DNA of 64,000 nt, taken from contig JBHHYV010000005.1 of assembly GCA_046757685.1 (NCBI GenBank), positions 374 through 64,373 of the forward strand, read 5' to 3'. The position numbers were made by a program, and so were the translations under genes. Every line of letters begins with the position of its first letter. The first letter of the stretch is position 1. The DNA comes from Myxococcota bacterium (lineage in GTDB: Bacteria > Myxococcota_A > UBA9160 > SZUA-336). The notes under the pieces were generated by a model, which was not told the origin of the DNA, did not search any database, and saw nothing but the letters and a program-made list of their open reading frames with translations. Below are positions 3,148-56,766 of this stretch, piece after piece.

Positions 3148-3513
3148 TCAGGCCTCGGCGAGCAGACCCCGGATATCCTCGAGCTCCTCGCGAAGCCTTG
3201 CGAGATCCCTGCGATCGGACGCCGAGGGGGAGCCGGGGTCGGCGCCACGCTGCAGCTCCGCGAGACGCTTGCGGGCCCCCTCGATCGTGAAGCGCTCCTG
3301 GTAGAGCAGGTGCTTGATTCGCAGGATCGTCTCGATGTCGCGCCGGCGGTACATGCGCTGGCGGGAGCGGGACTTGGGCGGAATCATCGCCTTGAACTCC
3401 GTCTCCCAGTAGCGCAGCACGTAGGGTTTGACGCCCGTCAGCTTCGCGACCTCTCCGATCCGGAAGTAGCTCTTCTCCGGGACCGACCGCATCGAGCTCT
3501 CGACGGTGTCCAT
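3148..3513 (-). CDS. MerR-family transcriptional regulator
   Basis: N-terminal MerR HTH signature YFRIGEVAKLTGVKPYVLRYWETEF; sits in the conserved position downstream of pheT-ihfA. Confidence 0.85.
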   Translation of the reverse strand: MDTVESSMRSVPEKSYFRIGEVAKLTGVKPYVLRYWETEFKAMIPPKSRSRQRMYRRRDIETILRIKHLLYQERFTIEGARKRLAELQRGADPGSPSASDRRDLARLREELEDIRGLLAEA

Positions 3514-3540
3514 GCTCGCCCTCCCCGCTTCGCGATCCGG

Positions 3541-3818
3541 CTACTGGTTTAGCGCGTTCTTCAGCACGAGGCTCGGCTTGAAGGTCAGCACGCGCCTCGC
3601 CTCGAGCTGGATCTCCTCGCCGGTCTGCGGGTTGCGGCCCTTGCGCGCGTTCTTCTCGCGCACGATGAAGTTCCCGAAGCCCGAGAACTTGACCTTGCGG
3701 CCCTCGATCAGCGACTCCTTGATCGAGTCGAAGACCGTCTCGACGAGCTCTGCCGACTCCTTCTTCGAGAAGCCGACCCGCTGATAGATGGTCTCGACGA
3801 TGTCTGCCTTCGTCACCT
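3541..3818 (-). CDS. ihfA: integration host factor subunit alpha
   Basis: C-terminal part of track ORF 3541..6222 reads (V)TKADIVETIYQRVGFSKKESAELVETVFDSIKESLIEGRKVKFSGFGNFIVREKNARKGRNPQTGEEIQLEARRVLTFKPSLVLKNALNQ, a typical IHF-alpha/HU fold; GTG start at ~3816-3818. Confidence 0.85.
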
Positions 3819-6251
3819 TGCCACTCCTCCATTCGCGGCCGAGCGCCGCGCCCCCTGAAAGCGCTTCTCCAGCATCCCCTCGATCCGACCGATGAACCGG
3901 GCGACCTCGTCCTCGGTCAATGTCCGGTCTGGACGCTGGAAGATGAGCCGGAACGCCAGGCTCACCCGGCCCTCGCCGACGGCCTCCCCCCCGTATCGGT
4001 CGAAGAGGTCGACGGACACGAGGCTCGAGCCGCCGGCCTTGCGGATCCCGGCGAGAATGTCCCCCGCCGCGCAGTCCGCATCGAAGACCCAGGCCAGATC
4101 GCGGCGTACGGCGGGGTGCCTCGAGACCTCGCGGTAGCGCGGCGGGCGCGTGGCGAGCTGGGGCACACTCTCGAGGTCCAGCTCCAGCACCGCACACGGG
4201 GCCTCGATCCCGAACGCCTCGGCGGTCTCGGGATGAAGCTCGCCCAGCGCCCCCAGGCGATGCTTGCCGCAGCGGATCTCGCACGAGACCCGCGGGTGCA
4301 GATAGGGCTCGGTAGAGCCGGCCTCGAAGACCCCGTCGAGCGAGAGATCCTCGAGGAGCCGCTCCGCGACGCCCTTGAGCTCGAAGAAGCCGGCGGGGCG
4401 GGGGTCGGGCTCCCAGGGCGACTTGCGATCGCCCTGGATCCACACGGCCACCAGCGCCTCTCGCTCCGCGGGCAGCTCCTGGGAGCCGGCCCGTAGGAAG
4501 ACCGGCCCGACCTCGAAGAGCCGCACCTCGTCGACCTGTCGCGCCAGGTTCATCGAAGCCGCCCGAAGCACCGCGGGCAGCAGGCTCGTGCGCAGGCGGT
4601 CCTCGTCCTCGACCAGGGGGTTGAGAAGCGCCAGCGCGGGCCGCCGGGGATCGTCGGCAGCGAGCCGCAGGGCGTCCGCATCCCGGCGATGGCTCACCGG
4701 AAGGCTGAGGATCTCGAAGGCTCCGGACGCCCACAGGCTGTCGCGCGCGCGCTCGATCGTGGGCATCAGGGGCGGAAGCGTCGCCCCACAGAGCGGCGCC
4801 TCGGGCACCGTCGTGGGGATCCGATCGTAGCCGTGGATCCGGGCCACCTCCTCGACCAGGTCGACGCCGATCTGCAGGTCGTTGCGCCAGCTCGGAACCT
4901 GGAAGTGCGCCCGGCCGGGGACGTTCGCCGGCAGCCCCTCGATTCCGAGCCGAGAGAGAACCCCGCGGATCTCGCTCTCCGACAGCTGGGTTCCGAGCAG
5001 CCGGTTGACGACGTCGAACTCCAGCTCGATCGGCCCGGCTGCCGGAGCGGGGTCGCCCTCGGCGGAGACCCGGCCAGGGGCGACCTGACCTCCGGCCAGA
5101 TCGGCGATCAGCCGTGCGGCACGGTCCAGGGCGCGCTCGATCCCCTCGCGGTCGATTCCCCGCTCGAAGCGGTACGAGGACTCGGTCTGAACTCCCAGGC
5201 GCCGCGCGGTGCGCCGGATTCGAGAGGGATCGAAGTGCGCGCTCTCGAGCAGCACATCGCAGGTGCCCGGACGCACCTCGGTCTCGGCGCCCCCCAGGAT
5301 GCCGGCGATCGCGACGGCGCGTTCGCGGTCCGCGATGACCAGGTCGCCGGGAAGCAGGCTGCGGGTCTCGCCGTCGAGCGTCGCGATCTTCTCGTCGGGC
5401 CGCGCGGAACGAACCTCCACCTCTGCGCCGCGTATGCTCGCCAGATCGAAGGCGTGCAGCGGCTGGCCCCACTCCGCCAGCACCAGGTTCGTCACGTCGA
5501 CCACGTTGTTGATCGAACGGTGCCCCGCCGCCTCGAGGCGGGCGCGGAGGGCCTCGGGCGAGGGTCCGACGCGGACCCCGCGGACGACGCGGGCCGCGTA
5601 GCGGGGGCAGCCGGCGCGGTCGGAGATCCGCACACCGATCGCCTGCGCGGCGGGAGCTCCCTGCTCGACCTCGGGAGCGATCTCGGGAAGGCGGAGCTCC
5701 CCCCCGAAGAGCGCCTGGACCTCGCGGGCGATCCCGAGCATCGACGCGCAGTCGCCCCGGTTCGGGGTGATCGCGACGTCGAGAACGGTGTCGCCGCACT
5801 CGATGGCCTCTGCGAGCGGTGCGCCGACCGTGGCATCGGCGTCCAGCACGCGGATCCCGGACTGGTCCTCGCCGAGCCCGAGCTCCCGGTCCGAGCAGAT
5901 CATCCCCTCCGAGACCTGTCCGCGAATCCTGGCTCGCTTGAGCCGCGTGCCGTCCGGCAGGCGCTGGCCGGCGGGGACGAAGGCGATGAGCTGGCCCGCG
6001 GCGACGTTCGGCGCTCCACAGACGACGTGCGCTGGCTCCGCCTGGCCCCAGTCGACCTCGCAGACGCGCAGCCGGTCGGCGTCGGGATGGGCCCGACAGT
6101 CGACGACGCGTCCCACGACGATTCCCGAGAGGTCGGGGCCGCTGCGCTCGAGCGCCTCGACCTCGAGGCCCGCGAGCGTGAGGGTCTCGGCGAGGCGGTC
6201 GGGGGACGGAAGGTCCACCCACTCCGCCAGCCAGCCAAGGGAGACCCTCAC
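3813..6251 (-). CDS. pheT: phenylalanine--tRNA ligase beta subunit
   Basis: Track ORF 3813..6428; conserved PheT N-terminus VRVSLGWLAEWVDLPSPDRLAETLTLAGLEVE begins 59 codons into the ORF. GTG start overlaps the pheS stop (GTGA). Confidence 0.9.
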   Translation of the reverse strand: MRVSLGWLAEWVDLPSPDRLAETLTLAGLEVEALERSGPDLSGIVVGRVVDCRAHPDADRLRVCEVDWGQAEPAHVVCGAPNVAAGQLIAFVPAGQRLPDGTRLKRARIRGQVSEGMICSDRELGLGEDQSGIRVLDADATVGAPLAEAIECGDTVLDVAITPNRGDCASMLGIAREVQALFGGELRLPEIAPEVEQGAPAAQAIGVRISDRAGCPRYAARVVRGVRVGPSPEALRARLEAAGHRSINNVVDVTNLVLAEWGQPLHAFDLASIRGAEVEVRSARPDEKIATLDGETRSLLPGDLVIADRERAVAIAGILGGAETEVRPGTCDVLLESAHFDPSRIRRTARRLGVQTESSYRFERGIDREGIERALDRAARLIADLAGGQVAPGRVSAEGDPAPAAGPIELEFDVVNRLLGTQLSESEIRGVLSRLGIEGLPANVPGRAHFQVPSWRNDLQIGVDLVEEVARIHGYDRIPTTVPEAPLCGATLPPLMPTIERARDSLWASGAFEILSLPVSHRRDADALRLAADDPRRPALALLNPLVEDEDRLRTSLLPAVLRAASMNLARQVDEVRLFEVGPVFLRAGSQELPAEREALVAVWIQGDRKSPWEPDPRPAGFFELKGVAERLLEDLSLDGVFEAGSTEPYLHPRVSCEIRCGKHRLGALGELHPETAEAFGIEAPCAVLELDLESVPQLATRPPRYREVSRHPAVRRDLAWVFDADCAAGDILAGIRKAGGSSLVSVDLFDRYGGEAVGEGRVSLAFRLIFQRPDRTLTEDEVARFIGRIEGMLEKRFQGARRSAANGGVAR

Positions 6252-49042: not shown

Positions 49043-49490
49043 GTGCGTCGGACCTTCTCTGCAAGTGCCTGCGACCGCGGACCGACCGGATCGAGGTACA
49101 GGCGTCGCGCGCAGTCTGACGCAATCTCCAGCCGGATCCAGAGCCGGTCCCTTCCCAGGGCCTCGGGAAAGCGATCCGCCCACTCCACCACGACCACTCC
49201 GCGGCCGTCGAAGAGGTCGTCGAACCCGGCATCCCAGAGCCGCTGGAGCGACTCCACGCGGTAGAGATCGGCGTGGTGCAGCGGAGGATCGGTCGGGTAC
49301 TCCGCCACCAGGGTGTAGGTCGGGCTCGTGACGGGCGCCGAGTCCTCGAGACCCAGGCCGCGCGCGAGTCCCTGGGCGAGCACGGTCTTTCCGACGCCGA
49401 GCGGACCGACGAGCCCTACGACGTCGCCGGCGCGCAGCAGCGATCCGAGGCTCCTCCCCAGGGCCCGCGTGGAGGCCGCGCTAGGGGAAG
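49033..49490 (-). CDS. tsaE: tRNA t6A biosynthesis ATPase TsaE (YjeE)
   Basis: C-terminal ~150 aa of track ORF 49033..49743: GDVVGLVGPLGVGKTVLAQGLARGLG...SPTYTLVAEY...HADLYRV. Confidence 0.75.
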
Positions 49491-51082
49491 TCACGGACCA
49501 GGTCGTCACCCTGCGCCTCCCCCCGGGTGGGGTGCTCCGCCGCCAGGGCCCGCCACGCACTCGGAAGCCGCTCGGCGAGCTCTCCCGCCGTCCCGCCAAC
49601 CCCGGGCCCGAGGTCGCCGGCCAGGCCGTGCAGGTAGGCGCCGAGGCCAGCCGCCTCGAGGGGGGACAGCCCCTGGCCGAGCAGCGCGGCGACGCACCCC
49701 GAGAGCACGTCTCCGCTCCCGCCGGCCGCCAGACCCGGTCCACCGGTGGGGTTGACGAGGACCTCGCCGTCGGGCGCGCAGGCGAGGCTGCGGGAGCCCT
49801 TCAGGAGCACCACCGCTCCGGTCGCGCGGGCCAGCGATCGCGCCGCGCCCACGCGGTCGCGCTGCACCGCGGCAACGTCCAGGCCCAGGAGTCGCGCCAT
49901 CTCACCGGGGTGCGGCGTCAGCACCCGCACCGCGCGGGAGCGCAGGTCGGCGGGGCGACCCGCGAACCAGTTGAGGGCGTCCGCATCCACGACGGTGGGA
50001 CGCTCGCAGCCTGCGAGCAGGCGCTCGAGGGCTCGGCCCGTCTCGGGGGCCGTTCCCAGCCCGGGACCGACCACCACCGCGCTGCGCTGTGCAGCCGCCT
50101 CGAGCAGGGCGCCGGCCGACCCCTCGGCCAGCATGCCACCTCCCGCATCGGCGACGGGGAGACTCATCGACTCGCGAGAGGCGGCCGCGAGAACCGGATC
50201 GAGGCTCGCGGCGGCAGCGAGTGTGACCAGCCCTGCCCCGCTGCGCAGGGCCCCCTCGCCCGCCAGCAGAAGCGCGCCGGTCTTGCCGGTCGAGCCGCCC
50301 ACGACCAGCACGTGTCCATAGCTGCCCTTGTGGCTCCGGAGCGGGCGAGCCGGCAAGCGAGCGCGCGCCGCGCCGCGCGTCCAGAGGTGCTGGCGGACCG
50401 CCACGCGCTCGAGGCCTTCCCCCGGGAACCCCAGGTCGGCGACCACCACCTTCCCGGTGCTCGCTCGCAGGGCCTGTCCGAGCTTGGGAAGCCCCAGTGC
50501 CGCGATCAGCGCCGGCTCCAGGACGGGTCCCAGGAAGTCCCCGGTCTCGCACGACTGGCCCGAGGGCACGTCGAGGCAGGCCAGCGGCAGATCCGAGTCC
50601 GCCAGCCTCTCGAGGATTGCGCCGAACAGGCCCTCGACCGGACGCGCCAGCCCGACGCCGAGCAGCGCGTCCACCGCGAGGTCCGCGCCCCGGATCAGCG
50701 GCTCGAGGCCGCTCGCCTCCTTCAGCGCGACCACCTCGATCCCACAGGCTCCGAGCATGTCGCGATTGACGCGGGCCTCGGCGCTCTGGCGGTTCGGATC
50801 CCCCACGGCCACCACCACCGGTCGCACGCGGCGATCCCACTCGCGCAGCACTCGAGCCAGGGCAAACCCGTCGCCGCCGTTGTTGCCGGGGCCGCAGATC
50901 ACCAGTGGGCGCTCGAACCCGCCCAGCTCGCGGCGCAGCGCGAACGCCGTCCCACGCGCCGCGTTCTCCATCAGCAGTCTCTCGGGAAGCCCCGCTCCCT
51001 CGATGGCAAAGCGATCGATCGCTCGCATCTCGTCGGCCGTCGGACAGGGCCAGCCCCGCTGCTCGAGCGTACTCGAATCCAC
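49481..51082 (-). CDS. nnr: bifunctional NAD(P)H-hydrate repair enzyme Nnr (epimerase + ADP-dependent dehydratase)
   Basis: C-terminal ~530 aa of track ORF 49481..51430; YjeF-N (LVICGPGNNGGDGFALAR) and YjeF-C (KGSYGHVLVVGGSTGKTGALLLAGEGALRSGAGLV...GGSGDVLSG). Confidence 0.8.
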   Translation of the reverse strand: MDSSTLEQRGWPCPTADEMRAIDRFAIEGAGLPERLLMENAARGTAFALRRELGGFERPLVICGPGNNGGDGFALARVLREWDRRVRPVVVAVGDPNRQSAEARVNRDMLGACGIEVVALKEASGLEPLIRGADLAVDALLGVGLARPVEGLFGAILERLADSDLPLACLDVPSGQSCETGDFLGPVLEPALIAALGLPKLGQALRASTGKVVVADLGFPGEGLERVAVRQHLWTRGAARARLPARPLRSHKGSYGHVLVVGGSTGKTGALLLAGEGALRSGAGLVTLAAAASLDPVLAAASRESMSLPVADAGGGMLAEGSAGALLEAAAQRSAVVVGPGLGTAPETGRALERLLAGCERPTVVDADALNWFAGRPADLRSRAVRVLTPHPGEMARLLGLDVAAVQRDRVGAARSLARATGAVVLLKGSRSLACAPDGEVLVNPTGGPGLAAGGSGDVLSGCVAALLGQGLSPLEAAGLGAYLHGLAGDLGPGVGGTAGELAERLPSAWRALAAEHPTRGEAQGDDLVRDFP

Positions 51083-51209
51083 GCCGCGAGAAGCTAGCAG
51101 GCCCCGACCGAAGCCACTCGAGCGAGACGAGCGAGACCTCCTCCGTGGGGAGGCCGACTCCCTCGCGCCTGCAGCCGGAGCCCGCCGCCGAGTCGGCGGC
51201 CCGGCGCGA

Positions 51210-51881
51210 TCAGATCTCCTGGGGCCTCGACGTGCGCCGGGCGCCCGCCAGTGTGCCCGGCACCCACGCGATCGCCACCAGTCCGGCGAGCAGCGGGGCG
51301 AGCAGGTGTGCGAAGACCAAGTGGAGGGGATCCGAGATCCCGCAAGCCACGTGGCCCGGCAGGGCGACGAGCGCGGCGATGCCCACGACGCCCAGCACTG
51401 CGGTCGCGACAGGGCGCCGCGGGACCCCATGGCCGATGAAGCGCGTGACGAAGTAGGCGGGCAGCAGCGCCGGAACCAGGGTGAGCCCCAGGCAGGTCAG
51501 ACCGCTCGCCAGGCCCGCGGCCGCGGGAGTGGGGAGCGCAACCAGGTAGACGGCGATCGCGACCGTGGCTGCCAGGCCGGCTCCGGCGATCGAGAGCCCG
51601 GCGCGCTCGAGCCGGATGCGGCCCGGCACACACGCGCCGAGAGCGGCCGCGAGAGCTCCGGCCGCCACGGCTCCGTGGCCCGCCACCGCCAGCCACGCGC
51701 CCGGGCGGCTCGGAGCCGAGCCGAACACACCCACCGCGACCGCGACCAGGCACGAGGCGGCGGCCGCCCCTACGGCCAGGGTGAGACCGAGCGCCGCCGC
51801 GCGGGAGAGCGGGGGCAGGATCTCGACCGGCCTCAGGTCCGCCGAGAGACGCTCGATCAGCTCGTCCGTGCTTGGACTCAC
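51210..51881 (-). CDS. anti-sigma factor, DUF1109/NrsF-like polytopic membrane protein
   Basis: 223 aa; short cytoplasmic N-terminus MSPSTDELIERLSADLRPVE then ~6 TM segments with conserved Cys; start overlaps the ECF sigma stop (ATGA). Confidence 0.65.
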   Translation of the reverse strand: MSPSTDELIERLSADLRPVEILPPLSRAAALGLTLAVGAAAASCLVAVAVGVFGSAPSRPGAWLAVAGHGAVAAGALAAALGACVPGRIRLERAGLSIAGAGLAATVAIAVYLVALPTPAAAGLASGLTCLGLTLVPALLPAYFVTRFIGHGVPRRPVATAVLGVVGIAALVALPGHVACGISDPLHLVFAHLLAPLLAGLVAIAWVPGTLAGARRTSRPQEI

Positions 51882-52480
51882 TCTCTCTCCCTCTCTCCCA
51901 GGATCGCGCGGAGCGCCTTGTAGCCACGGTGGGCGCGAACGCGCAGCGCCCCGGGACTGATACCCGCCTTCTCTGCCGCCTCGGCGACCGTGAGCTCGTG
52001 GATCTGGATGGACTCCACGGCCTGGCGCTGGGCCGGAGGCAGCGACTCGAGGGCACGCCGGAGCGAAGGTGAGAGCGGAGCCCCGACCCTGGAGGTGAGC
52101 GAGGGCCGCTCGTCGATCTCGGCTGCCGCCGTGCTCTCGGCCACCGCCAGCTCGCGTCGAATCCGGCGCATCCGAGCGCGCTGAGCATCGATGACCGCGT
52201 TGCGCGCAATCGCACGGAGCCAGCCACCAAAGGGTCGCCCGCTCTGATAGGTGTGGCGCGCCCGGTGCACCGAGATCAGCACCTCCTGCACGACGTCCTC
52301 CACTCTCGACGAATCCCTGAGCCGGAACCCCACATAGGACCGCAGGACCGGAAGGACCTCGCGCAGGAGCTTCTCGTAAGCGGCCTGGTCACCCCGCTGA
52401 GCGGCCCTCATCAGCCCGCTCCAGCGCGCTTCCTCTCGCGCCCTGCGATCCTGCGTCTGATCCTCGCCGTCCATACGCAC
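51878..52480 (-). CDS. ECF-type RNA polymerase sigma-70 family sigma factor
   Basis: 200 aa; region 2 (AAYEKLLREVLPVLRSYVGFRLRDSSRVEDVVQEVLISVHRA) and region 4 HTH (LPPAQRQAVESIQIHELTVAEAAEKAGISPGALRVRAHRGYKALR). True start may be the internal Met (..LMRAAQRGDQAAYEKLL). Confidence 0.85.
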   Translation of the reverse strand: MRMDGEDQTQDRRAREEARWSGLMRAAQRGDQAAYEKLLREVLPVLRSYVGFRLRDSSRVEDVVQEVLISVHRARHTYQSGRPFGGWLRAIARNAVIDAQRARMRRIRRELAVAESTAAAEIDERPSLTSRVGAPLSPSLRRALESLPPAQRQAVESIQIHELTVAEAAEKAGISPGALRVRAHRGYKALRAILGERERE

Positions 52481-52498
52481 ATCCCGGCGCTCGGGTTA
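52473..52498 (-). promoter_or_regulatory. ECF-type promoter motif GTAACC-N16-CGTA upstream of / overlapping the annotated sigma-factor start
   Basis: Minus-strand reading of ~52473-52498: GTAACCcgagcgccgggatgtgCGTA. Matches the GTAACC-N16-CGAA motif recalled for the Caulobacter SigF/NrsF system. Confidence 0.4.
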
Positions 52499-52552
52499 CA
52501 CCGCCCCGACCGCCTCTGGATCAAACCACACTCGATCGAAGAGCGCGACTGC

Positions 52553-52579
52553 AGGTAACTCTCGCGCGCTCCACCACGT
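52553..52579 (+). promoter_or_regulatory. second ECF-type promoter motif GGTAAC-N17-CGTA upstream of the DUF3179 gene
   Basis: Plus strand caGGTAACtctcgcgcgctccaccaCGTAtc; ~35 nt upstream of a strong SD (AAGGGAG) and the GTG start at ~52614. Confidence 0.4.
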
Positions 52580-52613
52580 ATCTGCCACACATGGCGGCAA
52601 GGGAGCGGAAGGC

Positions 52614-53588
52614 GTGAGGCGGGTCCCTACCTGGATGGCGCTCGTGCCTCTGCTGGCGCTCCTGTGGCCCGCCGGAGCGAACGCGAGCGCACCGAGGCTG
52701 AACGGCTTTCAGCTCGACCCTTCCGACGTACCGGTCGACGAGATCCTGCGGGGCGGTCCCCCTCGGGACGGAATCCCCGCACTCGACCACCCCGAGACGC
52801 TGCCCGCCGATCAGGCTCCGTGGCATCCCGAGGAGCTCGTCCTGGGGGTCGAGGTGTCGGGCGACGCGCGCGCCTACCCGATCGCGATCCTGAACTGGCA
52901 CGAGCTGGTCAACGACACGGTCGGGGGAGAACCGATCCTGATCTCCTACTGCCCCCTGTGCGGCAGCGGGCTCGTGTTCGACCGCCGCATCGACGGGGTC
53001 GCCCGCAGCTTCGGTGTCTCGGGGCTCCTCTACCAGTCCGACCTGCTGCTCTACGATCGCGAGTCGGACAGCCTCTGGTCCCAGCTCGAGTCGAAGGCCG
53101 TCACGGGCCCGGCCCGCGGATCGCGGCTGCGGGTCCTCCGGTCGGCACTCGTCCCCTGGGGCACCTGGCGCAGCCGCCACCCCGACACCCGGGTACTCTC
53201 TCTCGACACGGGGTACGGGCGCGACTACACGCAGTCACCCTACGGCGGATACGCACGCTCCGATCGCCTCTACTTTCCGGCACACCTGGATCGGCGCTAC
53301 CCGCCGAAGGCGCCCACCCTGGGCTTGCGGCTCGCCGACGGGACGGCGCGTGCGTTCCCGGCTCCAGAGATTCTGCGTGCCGGAGGTGAGATCGAGACGA
53401 AGTTTGCCAATCGACCCATCCGCGTGCGCTACGATGCCGCAGGGGGAACCTTCGATGTCACCGCGCCGCCCGACGTGGAGGTGATCGAGGCCTACTGGTT
53501 CGCCTGGTCGGCGTTCCACCCGAGCGCGAGCGTGTTCGTCGCGGTAGAGCCCGCGGCCGAAACCCATGGAGAGGAGACCTCTAGATGA
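52614..53588 (+). CDS. DUF3179-family secreted protein
   Basis: 324 aa; signal peptide MRRVPTWMALVPLLALLWPAGANA; DUF3179-like conserved blocks (PRDGIPALDHPE...ISYCPLCGSGLVFDRRIDG...LLYDRESDSLWSQ). Stop overlaps the downstream start (ATGA). Confidence 0.7.
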   Translation: MRRVPTWMALVPLLALLWPAGANASAPRLNGFQLDPSDVPVDEILRGGPPRDGIPALDHPETLPADQAPWHPEELVLGVEVSGDARAYPIAILNWHELVNDTVGGEPILISYCPLCGSGLVFDRRIDGVARSFGVSGLLYQSDLLLYDRESDSLWSQLESKAVTGPARGSRLRVLRSALVPWGTWRSRHPDTRVLSLDTGYGRDYTQSPYGGYARSDRLYFPAHLDRRYPPKAPTLGLRLADGTARAFPAPEILRAGGEIETKFANRPIRVRYDAAGGTFDVTAPPDVEVIEAYWFAWSAFHPSASVFVAVEPAAETHGEETSR

Positions 53589-54760
53589 CCCGACCCCGAC
53601 TCGTGCATGCCCTCGCCGCCTCGGCGATGGGCCTGGCCCTTCTCTGGGGCAGCTCGGCCGCGAGCGTGCAGGCTTCGGCGCTGCCGGCCCCCAGCACCTT
53701 GAACCCCTGTGCGGCCAAGACCCTGAATCCCTGCGCCGCCAAGACCCTCAACCCCTGTGCGGCGAAGACCCTGAATCCCTGTGCCGCCAAGACCCTCAAC
53801 GCCGCTGCCGCCCGGACCCTGAACCCCTGTGCGGCCAAGACCCTGAATCCCTGCGCGGCCAAGACCCTCAACCCCTGTGCGGCGAAGACCCTGAATCCCT
53901 GTGCCGCCAAGACCCTCAACGCCGCTGCTGCCCGGACCCTGAACCCCTGCGCGGCCAAGACCCTCAACCCCTGCCTGGCTCGCAAGCTCAATCCCTGTGC
54001 CGCCAAGACGCTGAATCCCTGCGCTGCGAAGCATTCGAGCGGGGACGGGGCCAGCCTGCTCGATCCGCGGACTGCGCGGCACCTGGTGACTCAGCTCGAG
54101 GTGAAGCCCCGCAGCATGATCCGGACCGTTGCCGCACACTCGAATCCCTGCAACCCGTGCGCAATGAAGCGGAACCCGTGCAACCCCTGCGCGATGAAGC
54201 ACAATCCGTGCAACCCCTGTGGCGCCAAGGGAAACCCCTGCAACCCGTGCGGAATGCGCAATCCCTGCAACCCCTGCGGAGGAGCGGCCCGCATCAACCC
54301 GTGCCAGTTCAAGCGTCCGACGGGGCTGTCGCTCGTGCGGGCCAGCCAGAAGGACCTCGTGGCCGAGGGCGAGAAGCTCTGGAACGACCGGTCGCTCGGC
54401 CGCAGCGGGCTGGCCTGCGCGAACTGTCACATCCAGAACTACATGCAGATGAACCCGACCTTCGGAAAGCCCTATCCGCACTACGTCGAGATGGTCCAGC
54501 AGCGCTCGGGTATCGACGAGGTCAGTGCCGACGAGATGGTGCAGTTCTGCATGATGGCCCCGATGGCCTCGAAGCCGCTGGGATGGCACTCGCGCGAGCT
54601 GGCCGCGCTGACCGCCTATGTCGAGCACATCCATCCCGGCTACCACCCCGTCGGAGGTGCCGGCGCCAACCCCTGCAACCCGTGCGGCATGAAGCACAAC
54701 CCGTGCAACCCGTGTGGCATGAAGCACAACCCCTGCAATCCATGCTCGAAGAAGATGTGA
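53585..54760 (+). CDS. secreted mono-heme c-type cytochrome flanked by Cys-rich NPC / CNPC (CxxC) tandem repeats
   Basis: 391 aa. Signal peptide MTRPRLVHALAASAMGLALLWGSSAASVQASA. About 15 x 8-aa repeats LNPCAAKT (with a 40-aa super-repeat duplicated). 5 x 10-aa repeats NPCNPC(A/G)MK(R/H). Cytochrome c core LVAEGEKLWNDRSLGRSGLACANCHIQNYMQMNPTF... (single CxxCH). 3 x C-terminal NPCNPCGMKH repeats. About 33 Cys in total. Confidence 0.75.
   Translation: MTRPRLVHALAASAMGLALLWGSSAASVQASALPAPSTLNPCAAKTLNPCAAKTLNPCAAKTLNPCAAKTLNAAAARTLNPCAAKTLNPCAAKTLNPCAAKTLNPCAAKTLNAAAARTLNPCAAKTLNPCLARKLNPCAAKTLNPCAAKHSSGDGASLLDPRTARHLVTQLEVKPRSMIRTVAAHSNPCNPCAMKRNPCNPCAMKHNPCNPCGAKGNPCNPCGMRNPCNPCGGAARINPCQFKRPTGLSLVRASQKDLVAEGEKLWNDRSLGRSGLACANCHIQNYMQMNPTFGKPYPHYVEMVQQRSGIDEVSADEMVQFCMMAPMASKPLGWHSRELAALTAYVEHIHPGYHPVGGAGANPCNPCGMKHNPCNPCGMKHNPCNPCSKKM
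53694..54040. repeat. ~15 copies of a 24-bp tandem repeat (ACCCTGAAYCCCTGYGCSGCCAAG), including a 120-bp block duplicated with 2 mismatches
   Basis: Seen directly; ~53697-53816 and ~53817-53936 are near-identical. Confidence 0.85.
54143..54306. repeat. 5 copies of a ~30-bp tandem repeat encoding NPCNPCxMKx; 3 further copies at ~54668-54746
   Basis: Seen directly (aatccctgcaacccgtgcgcaatgaagcgg and variants). Confidence 0.8.
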
Positions 54761-54770
54761 GGATCCCGGC

Positions 54771-56021
54771 TCAGCGAAGGAGCTGGCGGATCTCGCGGAG
54801 CAGGTAGCCTGACTTCTCGATCCGCGACCTCGCGCGCTCGATCTCGGCGCGGGCTCGCGGGTCCCGCAGGGACGGCAGCAGCACCCGGTACATCTCGCGG
54901 TAGTAGTGATCGGGGTCGATCCACACGCGGGCGACCAGGGCGCGAGCCCGCGGGTGCCGGGGCCGCTCGTAGTCCAGACTCACCGTCTGCCCGGGCAGGA
55001 CTCGCGTGTCGGAGCGTTCCCGCCCGGTCGACAGGTCTAGATCCCGCCCGATGAGAGCGTAGACCGACGTACCCTCGATCGGGTTTCCCGCCGAATCTTC
55101 CTGCTCGATCTCCAGACGGACCTGCGGAGTGACGTAGGTCGGGAACGCGTGTCCCACGTCGCGATTCCGGACGAGCAGCACGCTGGCATTCGGGCTCCGA
55201 GCCTGGAGCTCGATGTCGAGCGCCTGCCGAACCCAGTCGGCGTCGTGGATCCCTCGCCACAGGTGCGCGCGATCAGGCATGTGGCAGGTCTGGCAGGTGC
55301 GTCCCTCGCGTGCCTGGGGGCTGTCGCGCCACTCTGCCCAGGTGTTCTCGACCGGCTTGCCGGAGATTCCGGCATCATCGAAGAACTGGTGGCACTCGGC
55401 ACAGAAACGGCTCTCCCCGAACTCCGGGTGGGCCACGAAGCCGGCGTGCGGAGCCGGGTCGGCCGGCGGACCGGCTCCAGCGCGACGGACGGGGCCATGG
55501 CGTCGGTGCGCACGCACGTGGCAGCCGGCGCACACCAGACCTTGCGCGCGCAGCGCGGGGTCGAAGTCCGGGTTCGCGTCGAGCGTGGCGGTGTAGGGGA
55601 TCTGCTCTGCGAGCGGTGTGTGGCAGGTGTGGCAGCTCCGAGCCTGGGCGGGGTGGGAGAGCGATCCCTCGATCAGCTGGCCTTCGAGCCCGGGCGTCCA
55701 GCTGTGGGCGTGAACCGATGTCTGCCACTGTGCGAGCTGCAGCGGATGGCACGCGCCACATGTCGCCGGCTCGAGCGACGCCTCCGGAGCGCTGAACGAG
55801 CGTGGGGGGGGGCCCTGGGGAGGTACAGGCAGCGACCAGTAGCGCGCCAGGAAGGGTCCGAGTGTGCTCTCGCGGTCGAGACCCACCCCGGCCCCCGGGG
55901 CGAGCGTGCTCTGCATCGGGGACATCGCGCCCGTATCCAGGTCCGGTGGCAACGACGGCGGCTCCGGCGAGCGGCCACACCCGAGGGCGAGGAGCGCGAG
56001 CCCCGACCCCCATAGGTGCAT
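54771..56021 (-). CDS. multiheme (5 x CxxCH) c-type cytochrome, probable lipoprotein
   Basis: Track ORF 54771..56207; likely start MHLWGSGLALLALGCG (lipobox-like). Heme motifs CGACH, CHTCH, CAGCH, CAECH, CQTCH. Convergent with the repeat cytochrome with a ~10-nt gap. Confidence 0.8.
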   Translation of the reverse strand: MHLWGSGLALLALGCGRSPEPPSLPPDLDTGAMSPMQSTLAPGAGVGLDRESTLGPFLARYWSLPVPPQGPPPRSFSAPEASLEPATCGACHPLQLAQWQTSVHAHSWTPGLEGQLIEGSLSHPAQARSCHTCHTPLAEQIPYTATLDANPDFDPALRAQGLVCAGCHVRAHRRHGPVRRAGAGPPADPAPHAGFVAHPEFGESRFCAECHQFFDDAGISGKPVENTWAEWRDSPQAREGRTCQTCHMPDRAHLWRGIHDADWVRQALDIELQARSPNASVLLVRNRDVGHAFPTYVTPQVRLEIEQEDSAGNPIEGTSVYALIGRDLDLSTGRERSDTRVLPGQTVSLDYERPRHPRARALVARVWIDPDHYYREMYRVLLPSLRDPRARAEIERARSRIEKSGYLLREIRQLLR

Positions 56022-56133
56022 GTGCGACGATCTCGGGGCACGCATCTCGAGCAGAGGGTAGCCATCCTGGAAGCACGACGTCGCGGATCCGCTCGCGTGC
56101 ACCCGCGAACGCAAGGAGCGTAGGATTCGAGCA

Positions 56134-56766
56134 ATGGGAATCTCTTCGCGCATCCATGGCATCGGGCTCTCGCTGGCGTGGGCCGTCTTGCTCCTCGTAG
56201 GCATCACCTGCGCCGGAACTCTCTCGGGGGGCGCGGATCCTCAACACTACCGGCTCTCCGGGAGCTCCGACTGGCAGGTCGTGGGCTCCGACCGGGTTCT
56301 CGACGACCTCAGCGAGCGCTACCCGGAGTTCTTCGCCCTGGTCCTCGATCCGGATCGCCGCGAGGACATCGACCTGCGCGCGATTCGCGACGATCTGGAG
56401 CACCAGCCCGCGGACCGGCGCAACTACGACGCACTGAACGCCACGGCCATCGCCTACTTCGTGATGAACGAGCGCGCGGAGGAGGAGCGAGGCGGCGAGC
56501 TCTACTTCGTCCACTCCTTCCGGGCCGCCAAGCTGGTCGCCGTCCCCTGGCAGGCGTACGGACGTGTCGCGGACCCGGAGCTGCGCGACTCGATCCTGGA
56601 CTTCTTCGAAGACATCGCCAGCGGCAGCAAGCACTACTCGGCTCGCACCGCGAGCCGGCTGCACCGCGTCGTCTCCTCGCTGGCCCGCAAGGAAGACGAT
56701 GCGGCGAGGCTGGAGAGGATTCGCGCGCTCAGCGAGCGCCTGGCTCCTCCGGAGCCGGGCCGCTGA
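56134..56766 (+). CDS. hypothetical secreted protein or lipoprotein
   Basis: 210 aa; N-terminal signal ([28 protein letters not shown]), acidic soluble domain, no recognisable family. A weaker ECF-like motif GGTAGCC-N15-CGTC lies ~70 nt upstream. Confidence 0.5.

Follow-up and report, generated by a model that had tools for sequence, protein, structure and literature searches.

A candidate pair of divergent GTAACC-N16-CGTA promoters at a SigF/NrsF-type sigma factor locus of a Myxococcota bacterium

Two copies of one bipartite motif lie back to back between an ECF sigma factor gene and a divergently oriented operon in a Myxococcota bacterium, which raises the question of whether they are promoters through which the sigma factor would control both itself and its neighbours. 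The window, by which we mean the whole stretch of DNA that was analysed (64,000 nucleotides), encodes the sigma factor on the minus strand at 51878..52474 (Pfam Sigma70_r2 and Sigma70_r4_2), with its stop codon at 51880..51878 overlapped, as GTGA, by the GTG start of an NrsF-type (DUF1109) membrane anti-sigma gene (51210..51881, minus strand). On the plus strand, the first gene of the putative target operon encodes a DUF3179 protein with a signal peptide (52614..53588; PF11376, E=3.8e-81). It is followed at 53585..54760 by a gene for a secreted protein in which Cys repeats are fused to a SoxA/TsdA-like mono-haem cytochrome c domain with a CANCH site (PF21342). The intergenic distance of 133 nt given in an earlier note on this DNA is correct, provided that the sigma ORF starts at GTG 52480.

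Both motifs proposed in that note are present in the intergenic region, in the same register and with a 16-nt spacer on each strand. The predicted sigma-proximal promoter (52474..52499, minus strand) reads GTAACC-CGAGCGCCGGGATGTG-CGTA, with the -35 element GTAACC at 52499..52494 and the -10 element CGTA at 52477..52474. The predicted target promoter (52555..52580, plus strand) reads GTAACT-CTCGCGCGCTCCACCA-CGTA, with the -35 element GTAACT at 52555..52560 and the -10 element CGTA at 52577..52580. The earlier description of this second site as GGTAAC-N17-CGTA identified the right site in a register shifted by one base, equivalent to GTAACT-N16-CGTA. Transcription would be predicted to start ~5-6 nt 3' of CGTA, with the start sites expected at ~52467-52470 on the minus strand and ~52585-52587 on the plus strand. 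The DUF3179 GTG (52614) lies 33 nt beyond the end of the plus motif, and a Shine-Dalgarno sequence GGGAG (52601..52605) lies 8 nt 5' of this codon; the equivalent position in L001, a syntenic locus with 85% protein identity, is ATG. Between the two -35 elements, the block TCTGGATCAAACCA (52515..52528) is identical in L001.

A chance coincidence in a GC-rich intergenic region was weighed as an explanation, and the few bases that the motif specifies (9-10) speak for it. Against it, GTAACN-N15-18-CGTA occurs twice in 64 kb compared with 0.05 expected matches, both occurrences falling within one 133-nt region, and none of 100 shuffles reached two matches. No further copy was found in the window, even with one mismatch allowed. 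Using a weight matrix built from 92 sites, all in other genomes, the minus site scored 18.2 bits and the plus site 17.6 bits, while nowhere else in the 64 kb, on either strand, did a position exceed 8.8 bits. Together with the conservation described below, these comparative data refute a coincidence, to which we assign a negligible probability.

The motif was then followed across 82 related, orthologous sigma loci from Myxococcota genomes. It lies 5' of the sigma gene in 65 of the 82, and a divergent copy is present in 35. Across these genomes there are 91 matches in 21 kb of sigma-proximal DNA and 10 in 555 kb elsewhere, an enrichment of ~240-fold. Spacing is nearly fixed, with 96 of 100 matches within 450 nt upstream of sigma genes having N16 and the other four 15 or 17 nt, and while the length of 16 nt is fixed the spacer sequence itself is free. 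In L001 the -35 and -10 elements of both promoters are kept; its target promoter reads GTAACC...CGTA, and only 6 of its 16 spacer bases are identical to those of the window. The search pattern for the -10 element, CG[TA][AT], permitted CGAA, yet this canonical -10 was absent among the 94 compiled N16 sites; the third position is T in all 94 and the full element is CGTA in 91. The divergent promoters carry an A two bases 5' of CGTA in 93% of cases, and the window target promoter does not. As an aside, this A would create a TAnnnT -10 on the sigma strand that might act as a basal promoter, an idea that does not apply to the window or L001, both of which lack the A.

This fixed bipartite arrangement, a -35/-10 signature and not that of a dimer site, bears on a second alternative, namely that the motifs are operator half-sites (GGTTAC...GTAACC) for a dimeric factor or promoters of another ECF sigma factor. 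The two -35 elements do form an inverted repeat, only ~6-12 nt apart in many relatives, and 17 of the 24 relatives scanned have a second ECF sigma gene in the divergent position. However, the units are separated by anything from 5 to 109 nt depending on the locus (56 nt in the window), and in 34 loci only one unit is present, on which grounds the palindrome was rejected as an operator. Furthermore, the window lacks a second sigma of the paralogous type and still keeps both motifs, and the motif matches mapped promoters of NrsF-partnered sigma factors (PMC3511200, PMC3420878, PMC8315932, PMC4436054). We consider the operator or other-sigma explanation very unlikely for the window; in relatives with a divergent second sigma, recognition of the motif by this paralogous ECF sigma is possible in general. 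The proposal of an ECF-type promoter pair is thus borne out by the comparison, and the two motifs are very probably cognate promoters of the adjacent ECF sigma factor, one autoregulatory and one for the divergent target operon.

The identity of the two regulatory proteins is consistent with this assignment. The sigma factor contains only regions 2 and 4 (Sigma70_r2, E=6e-15; Sigma70_r4_2, E=5e-13; Sigma70_ECF; no other Pfam match), scores above the cut-off of NCBIfam TIGR02937, and is 41% identical to an NrsF-linked sigma factor of B. glumae. Its best plasmid-borne homologues share 35-46% identity, and seven of the eight plasmid-borne loci inspected adjoin an NrsF/DUF1109 gene, the eighth (L085) being in a record without annotation. 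These loci often also carry DUF2282-DUF692-DUF2063-DoxX.

Six hydrophobic segments run through the anti-sigma protein, and its Arg/Lys residues gather in every second loop, a positive-inside pattern from which Cys130 and Cys180 are predicted to lie at the periplasmic ends of helices 4 and 5. On its own this protein falls below the Pfam threshold for PF06532 (E=0.68, 10.2 bits vs 26.8), although its residues 12-210 align over the full length of the model (positions 1-201 of 204). A database search with the protein returned only two matches, its Ala/Leu/Gly-rich low complexity having swamped the word index, and the family was instead assembled from orthologues extracted from the related sigma loci. 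In this set, 49 of the 54 members aligned with the window protein match PF06532 (best 3e-17), and the family profile aligns to a protein named 'NrsF family protein' by PGAP with an hhalign probability of 96.7% (E=3.7e-10), upholding the earlier DUF1109 assignment. C130, C180, H187 and H192 are invariant in the 54 sequences, and the two hallmark cysteines correspond to the conserved pairs C131/C181 of NrsF (PMC3511200), C129/C179 of AbcS (PMC8315932), and C129/C179 of OsrA (PMC3420878). Judged from their sequences, the window anti-sigma is a divergent NrsF (DUF1109) and the system is an ECF16-like SigF/NrsF of a Myxococcota branch.

The likeness to the Caulobacter SigF motif GTAACC-N16-CGAA that the earlier note pointed out agrees with published work, in which the ECF16 consensus is given as (T/C)GTAAC-N17-CGAA (PMC8315932), equivalent to GTAACC-N16-CGAA (PMC3511200). 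Both window sites fit the ECF16 -35 element and spacing, and their -10 element CGTA departs from the canonical CGAA; it falls within the looser (c,t)CG(t,a) motif of B. japonicum (PMC3420878). An ECF16 'consensus' of AATTCG / GGTTAC given in a 2026 Cupriavidus paper resembles the reverse complement of the usual motif and was not used.

Similar to the window, the ECF16 prototype SigF-NrsF of Caulobacter crescentus (PMC3511200, PMC11626156) has a sigma gene followed by that of a DUF1109 anti-sigma with six helices and a conserved pair of periplasmic cysteines separated by 50 residues, and near-identical copies of GTAACC-N16-CG.A before sigF and before a neighbouring target operon. The motif in relatives of the window locus also precedes bufferin, MNIO, DUF2063, and DoxX genes, as in the Caulobacter regulon. 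Contrary to Caulobacter, the window has CGTA and not CGAA at -10, its target is DUF3179 with the Cys-repeat cytochrome c and not bufferin/MNIO/DoxX, and it belongs to the Myxococcota, with an NrsF too divergent for Pfam alone to recognise. Azospira suillum has the same arrangement: sigF-nrsF is divergent from its sole target operon, yedY1Z1-mrpX, and two SigF promoters lie in the region between them; the cargo includes MrpX, a secreted peptide that is rich in repeats and in sulfur amino acids and serves as a sink in the periplasm (PMC4436054). The Azospira cargo differs in being a Met-rich peptide with a molybdopterin methionine sulfoxide reductase, induced by hypochlorite or chlorite, whereas the window encodes Cys-rich repeats fused to a haem domain together with a CxxC protein. 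In Brucella melitensis, BcrS-AbcS (PMC8315932) is an autoregulated ECF16 pair with a neighbouring target operon (bcrS/bcrXQP), TGTAAC / GCGAA(A/T) promoters mapped by 5'-RACE, and C129 and C179 in AbcS; it differs in having a Met-rich MXKDX repeat protein and MsrQP as targets, and HOCl is a signal for this system, which influences genes of type IV secretion as well. EcfF-OsrA of Bradyrhizobium japonicum (PMC3420878) is likewise ECF16, with GTAAC(g,a)-N14-15-(c,t)CG(t,a) promoters in which CGT is allowed, and with Cys129 and Cys179 in OsrA.

The CarQ-CarR system of Myxococcus xanthus shares the phylum with the window, its CarR is a six-helix anti-sigma of the DUF1109 class, and carQRS is autoregulated in a system that is also copper-responsive (PMC8156234, PMC9304148). 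CarR differs in being reported as restricted to Cystobacterineae and diverged from other DUF1109 proteins, and the regulon is carotenogenesis. Membership of the window locus in a CarQ-CarR-CarS system was considered and rejected: no small carS-like gene was seen after nrsF in the window or in syntenic L001, where nrsF is followed by a YjeF_N/Carb_kinase (Nnr) homologue and then TsaE, and a large ORF matching this Nnr gene lies downstream of nrsF in the window (49481..51430, minus strand).

Nine of the 10 motif copies outside sigma-proximal DNA precede recognisable candidate targets, which include DoxX genes, an LNPCAAKT repeat gene, and bufferin-like Cys peptides that are followed in these relatives by an MNIO enzyme (PF05114, E=3e-109) and DUF2063. 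Bufferin, MNIO, DUF2063, and DoxX genes make up the Caulobacter SigF regulon (PMC11626156); no bufferin, MNIO, or DoxX gene was found in the 64-kb window. The window cargo is uncharacterised and thematically close to such sulfur-redox and metal defence genes. The SYCPLCG (CxxC) motif of its DUF3179 protein is invariant in 7 of 7 linked homologues, and the DUF3179 family takes in UxxC selenoproteins (PMC9312934). The cytochrome domain resembles SoxA 1h31 (E=0.003), and the gene contains 24-nt and 30-nt tandem repeats. A 4-nt overlap between its start and the DUF3179 stop suggests translational coupling of the two genes. The divergent motif is kept in all DUF3179-linked relatives, and in one relative (L029) the homologue of the Cys-repeat gene has its own copy of GTAACC-N16-CGTA. 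On comparative grounds, the earlier proposal of autoregulation with direct control of the DUF3179 and cytochrome genes finds support.

The position of the sigma-proximal promoter raises the question of where the sigma protein starts. The -10 element overlaps GTG 52480 and, more importantly, ATG1, a conserved upstream start codon at 52474..52472, as CGTATG. The 'annotated GTG start' of the earlier note was the reader's own ORF call; in the public NCBI annotation the protein has 177 aa and begins, as that note had proposed for the true start, at an internal Met ('Met24', ATG at 52411..52409), compared with 198 aa from ATG 52474. Since the -10 element overlaps the in-frame ATG, the sigma-proximal transcript cannot encode the conserved N-terminal 21 residues, the extension that includes MDGEDQTQDRRAREEARWSGL; nor can a start codon upstream of the -35 element serve, because the TAA within GTAAC is an in-frame stop. 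A leaderless start at ATG 52474 was also rejected: GTAACC would then fall at -25..-20, and no alternative -10 is conserved within the spacer. Similarly, in B. japonicum the mapped ecfF start site, 6 bp after the -10, overlaps the annotated ATG, and for this reason the authors preferred the distal start, a choice between 186 and 170 aa (PMC3420878). There the upstream ATG is at the transcription start site, whereas the window ATG lies inside the -10 element, 5-6 nt further upstream.

Initiation solely at the internal Met, with the upstream in-frame ATG and the extension never translated, would agree with where the promoter lies, with the NCBI annotation, and with the precedent of B. japonicum. 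A GGAG lies 7 nt 5' of ATG 52411, and four relatives (L038, L042, L049, and L079) lack ATG1 and keep the promoter. The 21 upstream codons, however, evolve like protein-coding DNA. Of the 82 loci, 31 have CGTATG, with the ATG in frame in 30 of the 31, and the in-frame extensions have 10 distinct lengths that are all multiples of 3 (chance P ~1e-4). Trp is conserved at -4 in 65 of the 82 loci and Glu at -7 in 56, and column entropies over 19 loci of equal length follow the pattern of coding DNA: the wobble base of an acidic codon is free to vary, and the Trp codon is invariant. Counts of synonymous and nonsynonymous codon differences, 8 vs 16, come from only four close pairs and are underpowered. 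The extension also aligns with the translated N-termini of ECF16 (NrsF-linked) sigma factors in Burkholderia, Pantoea, and Rhizobium, and in other relatives it has its own start codon downstream of the promoter. The proposed internal start therefore accords with the promoter and sits poorly with the coding-like extension, and as the sole start we consider it unlikely. The overlap of the -10 with a start codon, set against this extension, is a paradox, a small but clean puzzle.

Two sigma isoforms are another possibility, which we put forward tentatively. A basal, sigma-independent transcript would encode the 198-aa form bearing the E..W..LM N-terminus, while the induced GTAACC-N16-CGTA transcript, beginning within codons 2-3, would be translatable only from the internal Met (52411) and yield a 177-aa form that differs in activity, stability, or NrsF affinity. 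In favour are the in-frame CGTATG overlap and the coding signature described above, the in-frame TAA that bars starts upstream of the -35, the four loci that lost ATG1 and kept the promoter, and the B. japonicum start site; the internal codon is ATG in 81 of the 82 loci, and published work describes a basal expression that does not depend on sigma for both sigF and bcrS (PMC3511200, PMC8315932). Several points argue the other way. No sigma-70-type promoter or terminator was found on scanning 51100-55000, and the divergent gene in many relatives lies so close that there is scant room for a basal promoter. The invariance of the Met need not mark a start, because Met is also there in proteobacterial homologues that clearly start upstream, and one locus (L035) has CTG at this position. 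Finally, in other relatives the extension starts at or after the expected transcription start site, either led by a Shine-Dalgarno sequence or leaderless, and the induced transcript therefore encodes the long form there. It is rather doubtful, though conceivable, that the CGTATG members of this large SigF-like branch in Myxococcota use an isoform switch, in which the induced form is truncated and lacks E..W, the basal form is full length, and the hold of NrsF or the lifetime of the protein is altered. Streptomyces coelicolor reportedly offers a parallel in SigR/SigR' (Kim et al., 2009), with constitutive and sigma-dependent promoters giving different N-termini and stability. The induced SigR transcript is said to yield the longer isoform, whereas that of the window would give the shorter, and the ECF group and anti-sigma type of SigR differ from those of the window system.

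Collectively, the preferred reading of the motifs as cognate promoters suggests the following model. At rest, the six-helix membrane protein NrsF would keep the sigma factor at the membrane. Its release would be triggered by an oxidant or a thiol-reactive metal, with the periplasm-facing Cys130 and Cys180 as the probable sensors. RNA polymerase with the sigma factor would then recognise GTAAC(C/T) as the -35 element and CGTA as the -10 element, separated by 16 nt. Leftward transcription of sigma-nrsF would provide positive autoregulation, and rightward transcription of the DUF3179 and Cys-repeat cytochrome c genes would yield two secreted, cysteine-rich redox or metal-handling proteins. In this model we infer that both promoters depend on the sigma factor, which signal induces them, and what the cargo does.

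The window locus is a new example of a known switch, with a cargo that differs from those of Azospira and Brucella. The SigF/NrsF (ECF16) system for oxidant and metal stress, studied in Proteobacteria and as CarQ/CarR, extends to many uncultured Myxococcota, and the promoter of the Myxococcota branch can be defined as GTAACC-N16-CGTA. DUF3179 and the secreted Cys-repeat SoxA-like cytochrome, whose functions are uncharacterised, are thereby linked to a SigF/NrsF-type stress response. By analogy with the bufferins and the Met-rich MrpX, this cargo may belong to periplasmic thiol, copper, or oxidant defence.

The earlier note had placed two divergent GTAAC-type motifs between the sigma/anti-sigma and DUF3179-cytochrome operons, and both were found. 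The sigma-proximal motif reads GTAACC-CGAGCGCCGGGATGTG-CGTA (52499..52474, minus strand) and the divergent target motif reads GTAACT-CTCGCGCGCTCCACCA-CGTA (52555..52580, plus strand). The GGTAAC-N17 form previously assigned to the plus strand is this same site written one base leftward, so both sites share a single register with a 16-nt spacer each. The window, a GC-rich contig from a Myxococcota metagenome-assembled genome, contains the pattern twice against 0.05 expected by chance, both times in one intergenic region; no further copy was present in the window when one mismatch was allowed. A weight matrix built solely from sites of other genomes scored the two sites at 18.2 and 17.6 bits, while the next best of ~128,000 positions scored 8.8. 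Between the two -35 elements, the block TCTGGATCAAACCA (52515..52528) is identical in the syntenic contig L001 despite diverged promoter spacers, and may serve as a regulator site or as part of a basal promoter.

Relatives of the sigma factor were sought by a scan with one genome per species, which yielded 80 loci at 45-64% identity. Nearly all are labelled Myxococcota, Myxococcales or ‘Deltaproteobacteria’, the few exceptions being Spirochaetales/Spirochaetaceae, Gammaproteobacteria, Proteobacteria or plain ‘bacterium’. The metagenomic contig L001, 85% identical, has the gene order of the window and keeps both GTAACC and both CGTA elements intact, with 6 of 16 bases retained in the rightward promoter spacer. 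Of 82 loci, 65 carry GTAAC-N17-CGTA on the sigma strand no more than 450 nt before the sigma gene, 35 carry it on the other strand, and 31 have it in both orientations. Only four instances deviate from a 16-nt spacer, and the third -10 base is T in every site of a search that had permitted A. Motif density fell from 4.3 per kb adjoining the sigma gene to 0.018 per kb across the other 555 kb. For nine of the ten remaining sites a recognisable target candidate follows: a DoxX gene in three cases; in five, a small secreted six-Cys peptide and then an MNIO enzyme (PF05114, E=3e-109) and DUF2063, a group that is a bufferin-type cluster; and in L029, a gene whose product has the LNPCAAKT repeats of the window protein. 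The tenth (L039), 355 nt before the sigma gene, has no recognisable gene after it. Since bufferin and DoxX operons constitute the Caulobacter SigF regulon (PMC11626156), the motif tracks both the sigma family and its expected targets.

Bufferin-type clusters (six-Cys secreted peptide, MNIO, DUF2063, DoxX), each with GTAACC-N16-CGTA upstream, were seen in uncultured Myxococcota at L024, L038, L042, L049 and L079, downstream of nrsF, and at L013, L014 and L019. In the divergent promoters of 31 related loci, an A stands two bases before CGTA in 93% and a CA follows 4-5 nt after it in 74%; the A yields TACGNT, a TAnnnT-like hexamer, on the opposite strand. Sigma-proximal promoters lack both features, as do the divergent promoters of the window and L001.

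The ECF sigma gene (longest ORF 51878..52480, minus strand) encodes regions 2 and 4 only; NCBI lists the identical protein as ‘MAG: RNA polymerase sigma factor [Myxococcota bacterium]’. The start codon of the next gene overlaps the sigma stop codon; this gene encodes the anti-sigma, 223 aa long with six hydrophobic segments. The assignment of this protein to DUF1109 was right, as a divergent member: on its own it matches PF06532 at E=0.68, below the Pfam threshold, with an alignment that covers the whole model. When the equivalent gene was taken from 53 related loci and aligned with that of the window, 49 of the 54 proteins matched PF06532 (best 3e-17), and the family profile gave a 96.7% probability match to a Burkholderia glumae protein that PGAP names NrsF. 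The invariant columns are C130, C180, H187 and H192; published work gives the conserved pair of cysteines as C131/C181 for Caulobacter NrsF (PMC3511200) and as C129/C179 for OsrA and AbcS (PMC3420878, PMC8315932).

Known recognition sequences are GTAACC-N16-CGAA for Caulobacter SigF (PMC3511200), (T/C)GTAAC-N17-CGAA for ECF16 generally (PMC8315932) and GTAAC(g,a)-N14-15-(c,t)CG(t,a) for B. japonicum EcfF (PMC3420878). In Caulobacter SigF and ECF16 generally the -10 element is thus CGAA, whereas in the branch of the window it is CGTA. The best plasmid homologues of the sigma in cultured bacteria share 35-46% identity; seven of eight inspected plasmid loci adjoin NrsF/DUF1109 genes, often with DUF2282-DUF692-DUF2063-DoxX, and the eighth record carries no annotation. 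GTAACC-N16-CGAA precedes a divergent DUF2282 gene in B. thailandensis and the sigma gene in Microvirga. Promoter mapping in Azospira suillum (sigF-nrsF opposite yedY1Z1-mrpX; PMC4436054) and in Brucella (PMC8315932) has demonstrated the same layout of two divergent promoters. Together, the motif match, the NrsF-adjoining homologues and the known layout identify the system, by sequence, as a probable ECF16-like member of the SigF/NrsF systems, with a -10 (CGTA) specific to its clade. The reading of the two motifs as a promoter pair predicted to be read by this sigma has strong comparative support and direct precedent in the literature. Myxococcus CarR is likewise a DUF1109-class anti-sigma (PMC8156234); judged by gene order and the syntenic L001, no carS is present at the locus.

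The rightward promoter faces a DUF3179 gene (52614..53588, plus strand; E=3.8e-81) encoding a signal peptide and a CPLC motif. DUF3179 adjoins the sigma gene divergently in the window, L001, L011, L028, L029 and L034, and lies behind an inserted second sigma gene in L020; all seven loci have the divergent motif, and all seven proteins keep SYCPLCG. This family appears in a list of selenoproteins, with UxxC (PMC9312934), which suggests a redox-active site. The next gene, overlapping DUF3179 by 4 nt, encodes a secreted 391-aa Cys-repeat cytochrome (53585..54760, plus strand), with 14 tandem TLNPCAAK units (24-nt period, 53696-54031) and about eight NPCNPCxMK(H/R) units in two blocks (30-nt period, 54142-54278 and 54667-54745), the latter containing CNPC (CxxC) units with Met, His and Lys on their flanks. 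The alignment of its SoxA/TsdA-like single c-type haem domain (CANCH) with SoxA takes in both CxxCH and the stretch around the axial Cys ligand, and a Cys stands at the SoxA ligand position. Repeats of the TLNPCAAK/NPCNPC type also occur in L001, L020 and L029. By analogy with MrpX and bufferins, we infer that this cargo may serve in periplasmic thiol or metal buffering.

Convergent with the cytochrome gene is a multihaem c-type cytochrome (54771..56207, minus strand) with weak MtrC/ExtKL-like matches; no promoter motif of its own was found, and it is kept beside the Cys-repeat cytochrome gene in L020 (221..1363, 57% identity). A 210-aa lipoprotein-like protein (56134..56766, plus strand), with no Pfam or NCBIfam match and the conserved pattern ...DP..YRL...W.V...RYPEFF...[10 protein letters not shown]..., is syntenic with the system, following DUF3179 in L029 (1656..2636, minus strand) and standing immediately after the divergent motif in L050 (1998..2648, minus strand).

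A second ECF sigma occupies the divergent position in 17 of 24 other relatives that were scanned (L008, L010, L025, L031, L037, L038, L042, L043, L047-L049, L052, L053, L058, L063, L073 and L079). These proteins (~190-215 aa, encoded at about 3200-3900) are 26-30% identical to the first and have no obvious anti-sigma. Placement under a divergent GTAACC-N16-CGTA suggests a sigma cascade in these relatives; a second sigma of this type is absent from the window.

The start of the sigma is less simple. In the earlier note, overlap of the -10 with the upstream start was taken to favour ATG 52411, the internal Met, and this proposal is only half supported. The NCBI annotation already begins there (177 aa), 81 of 82 loci have ATG at the internal codon, and the upstream ATG is lost in four. 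Divergent promoters in this branch carry a conserved CA 4-5 nt past CGTA, often the A of an ATG, which places the transcription start downstream of 52474; the sigma-dependent transcript of the window should thus lack the start codon of the extension. In B. japonicum the ecfF start, 6 bp past the -10, overlaps the annotated ATG, and the authors took the distal start (PMC3420878).

Against this, the upstream extension is probably protein-coding. The -10 is fused to ATG (CGTATG; 52472..52477, minus strand) in 31 loci, in frame in 30, whose ten extension lengths are each divisible by three. Eight codons upstream, the TAA within GTAAC closes the reading frame, so the sole possible upstream starts are ATG 52474 or, in the window, GTG 52480, which lies between that stop and the ATG and is not conserved. 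Coding constraint is evident in the 13-29 codons that precede the internal Met: in 19 loci of equal length an acidic codon has fixed first and second bases with a free third, and a Trp codon is invariant (Trp at -4 in 65 of 82 loci). The extension also aligns with translated N-termini of Burkholderia, Pantoea and Rhizobium homologues, and in other relatives its own start codon lies at or after the expected transcription start, leaderless-like or Shine-Dalgarno-led. A long basal isoform together with a short induced one would accommodate both sets of observations, and we regard this tentatively as a somewhat unlikely arrangement; a scan of 51100-55000 for sigma-70-type promoters detected none.

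The locus is marked by its variant -10 CGTA, by a cargo not linked before (DUF3179 with the Cys-repeat cytochrome) and by the conserved overlap of promoter and start codon.
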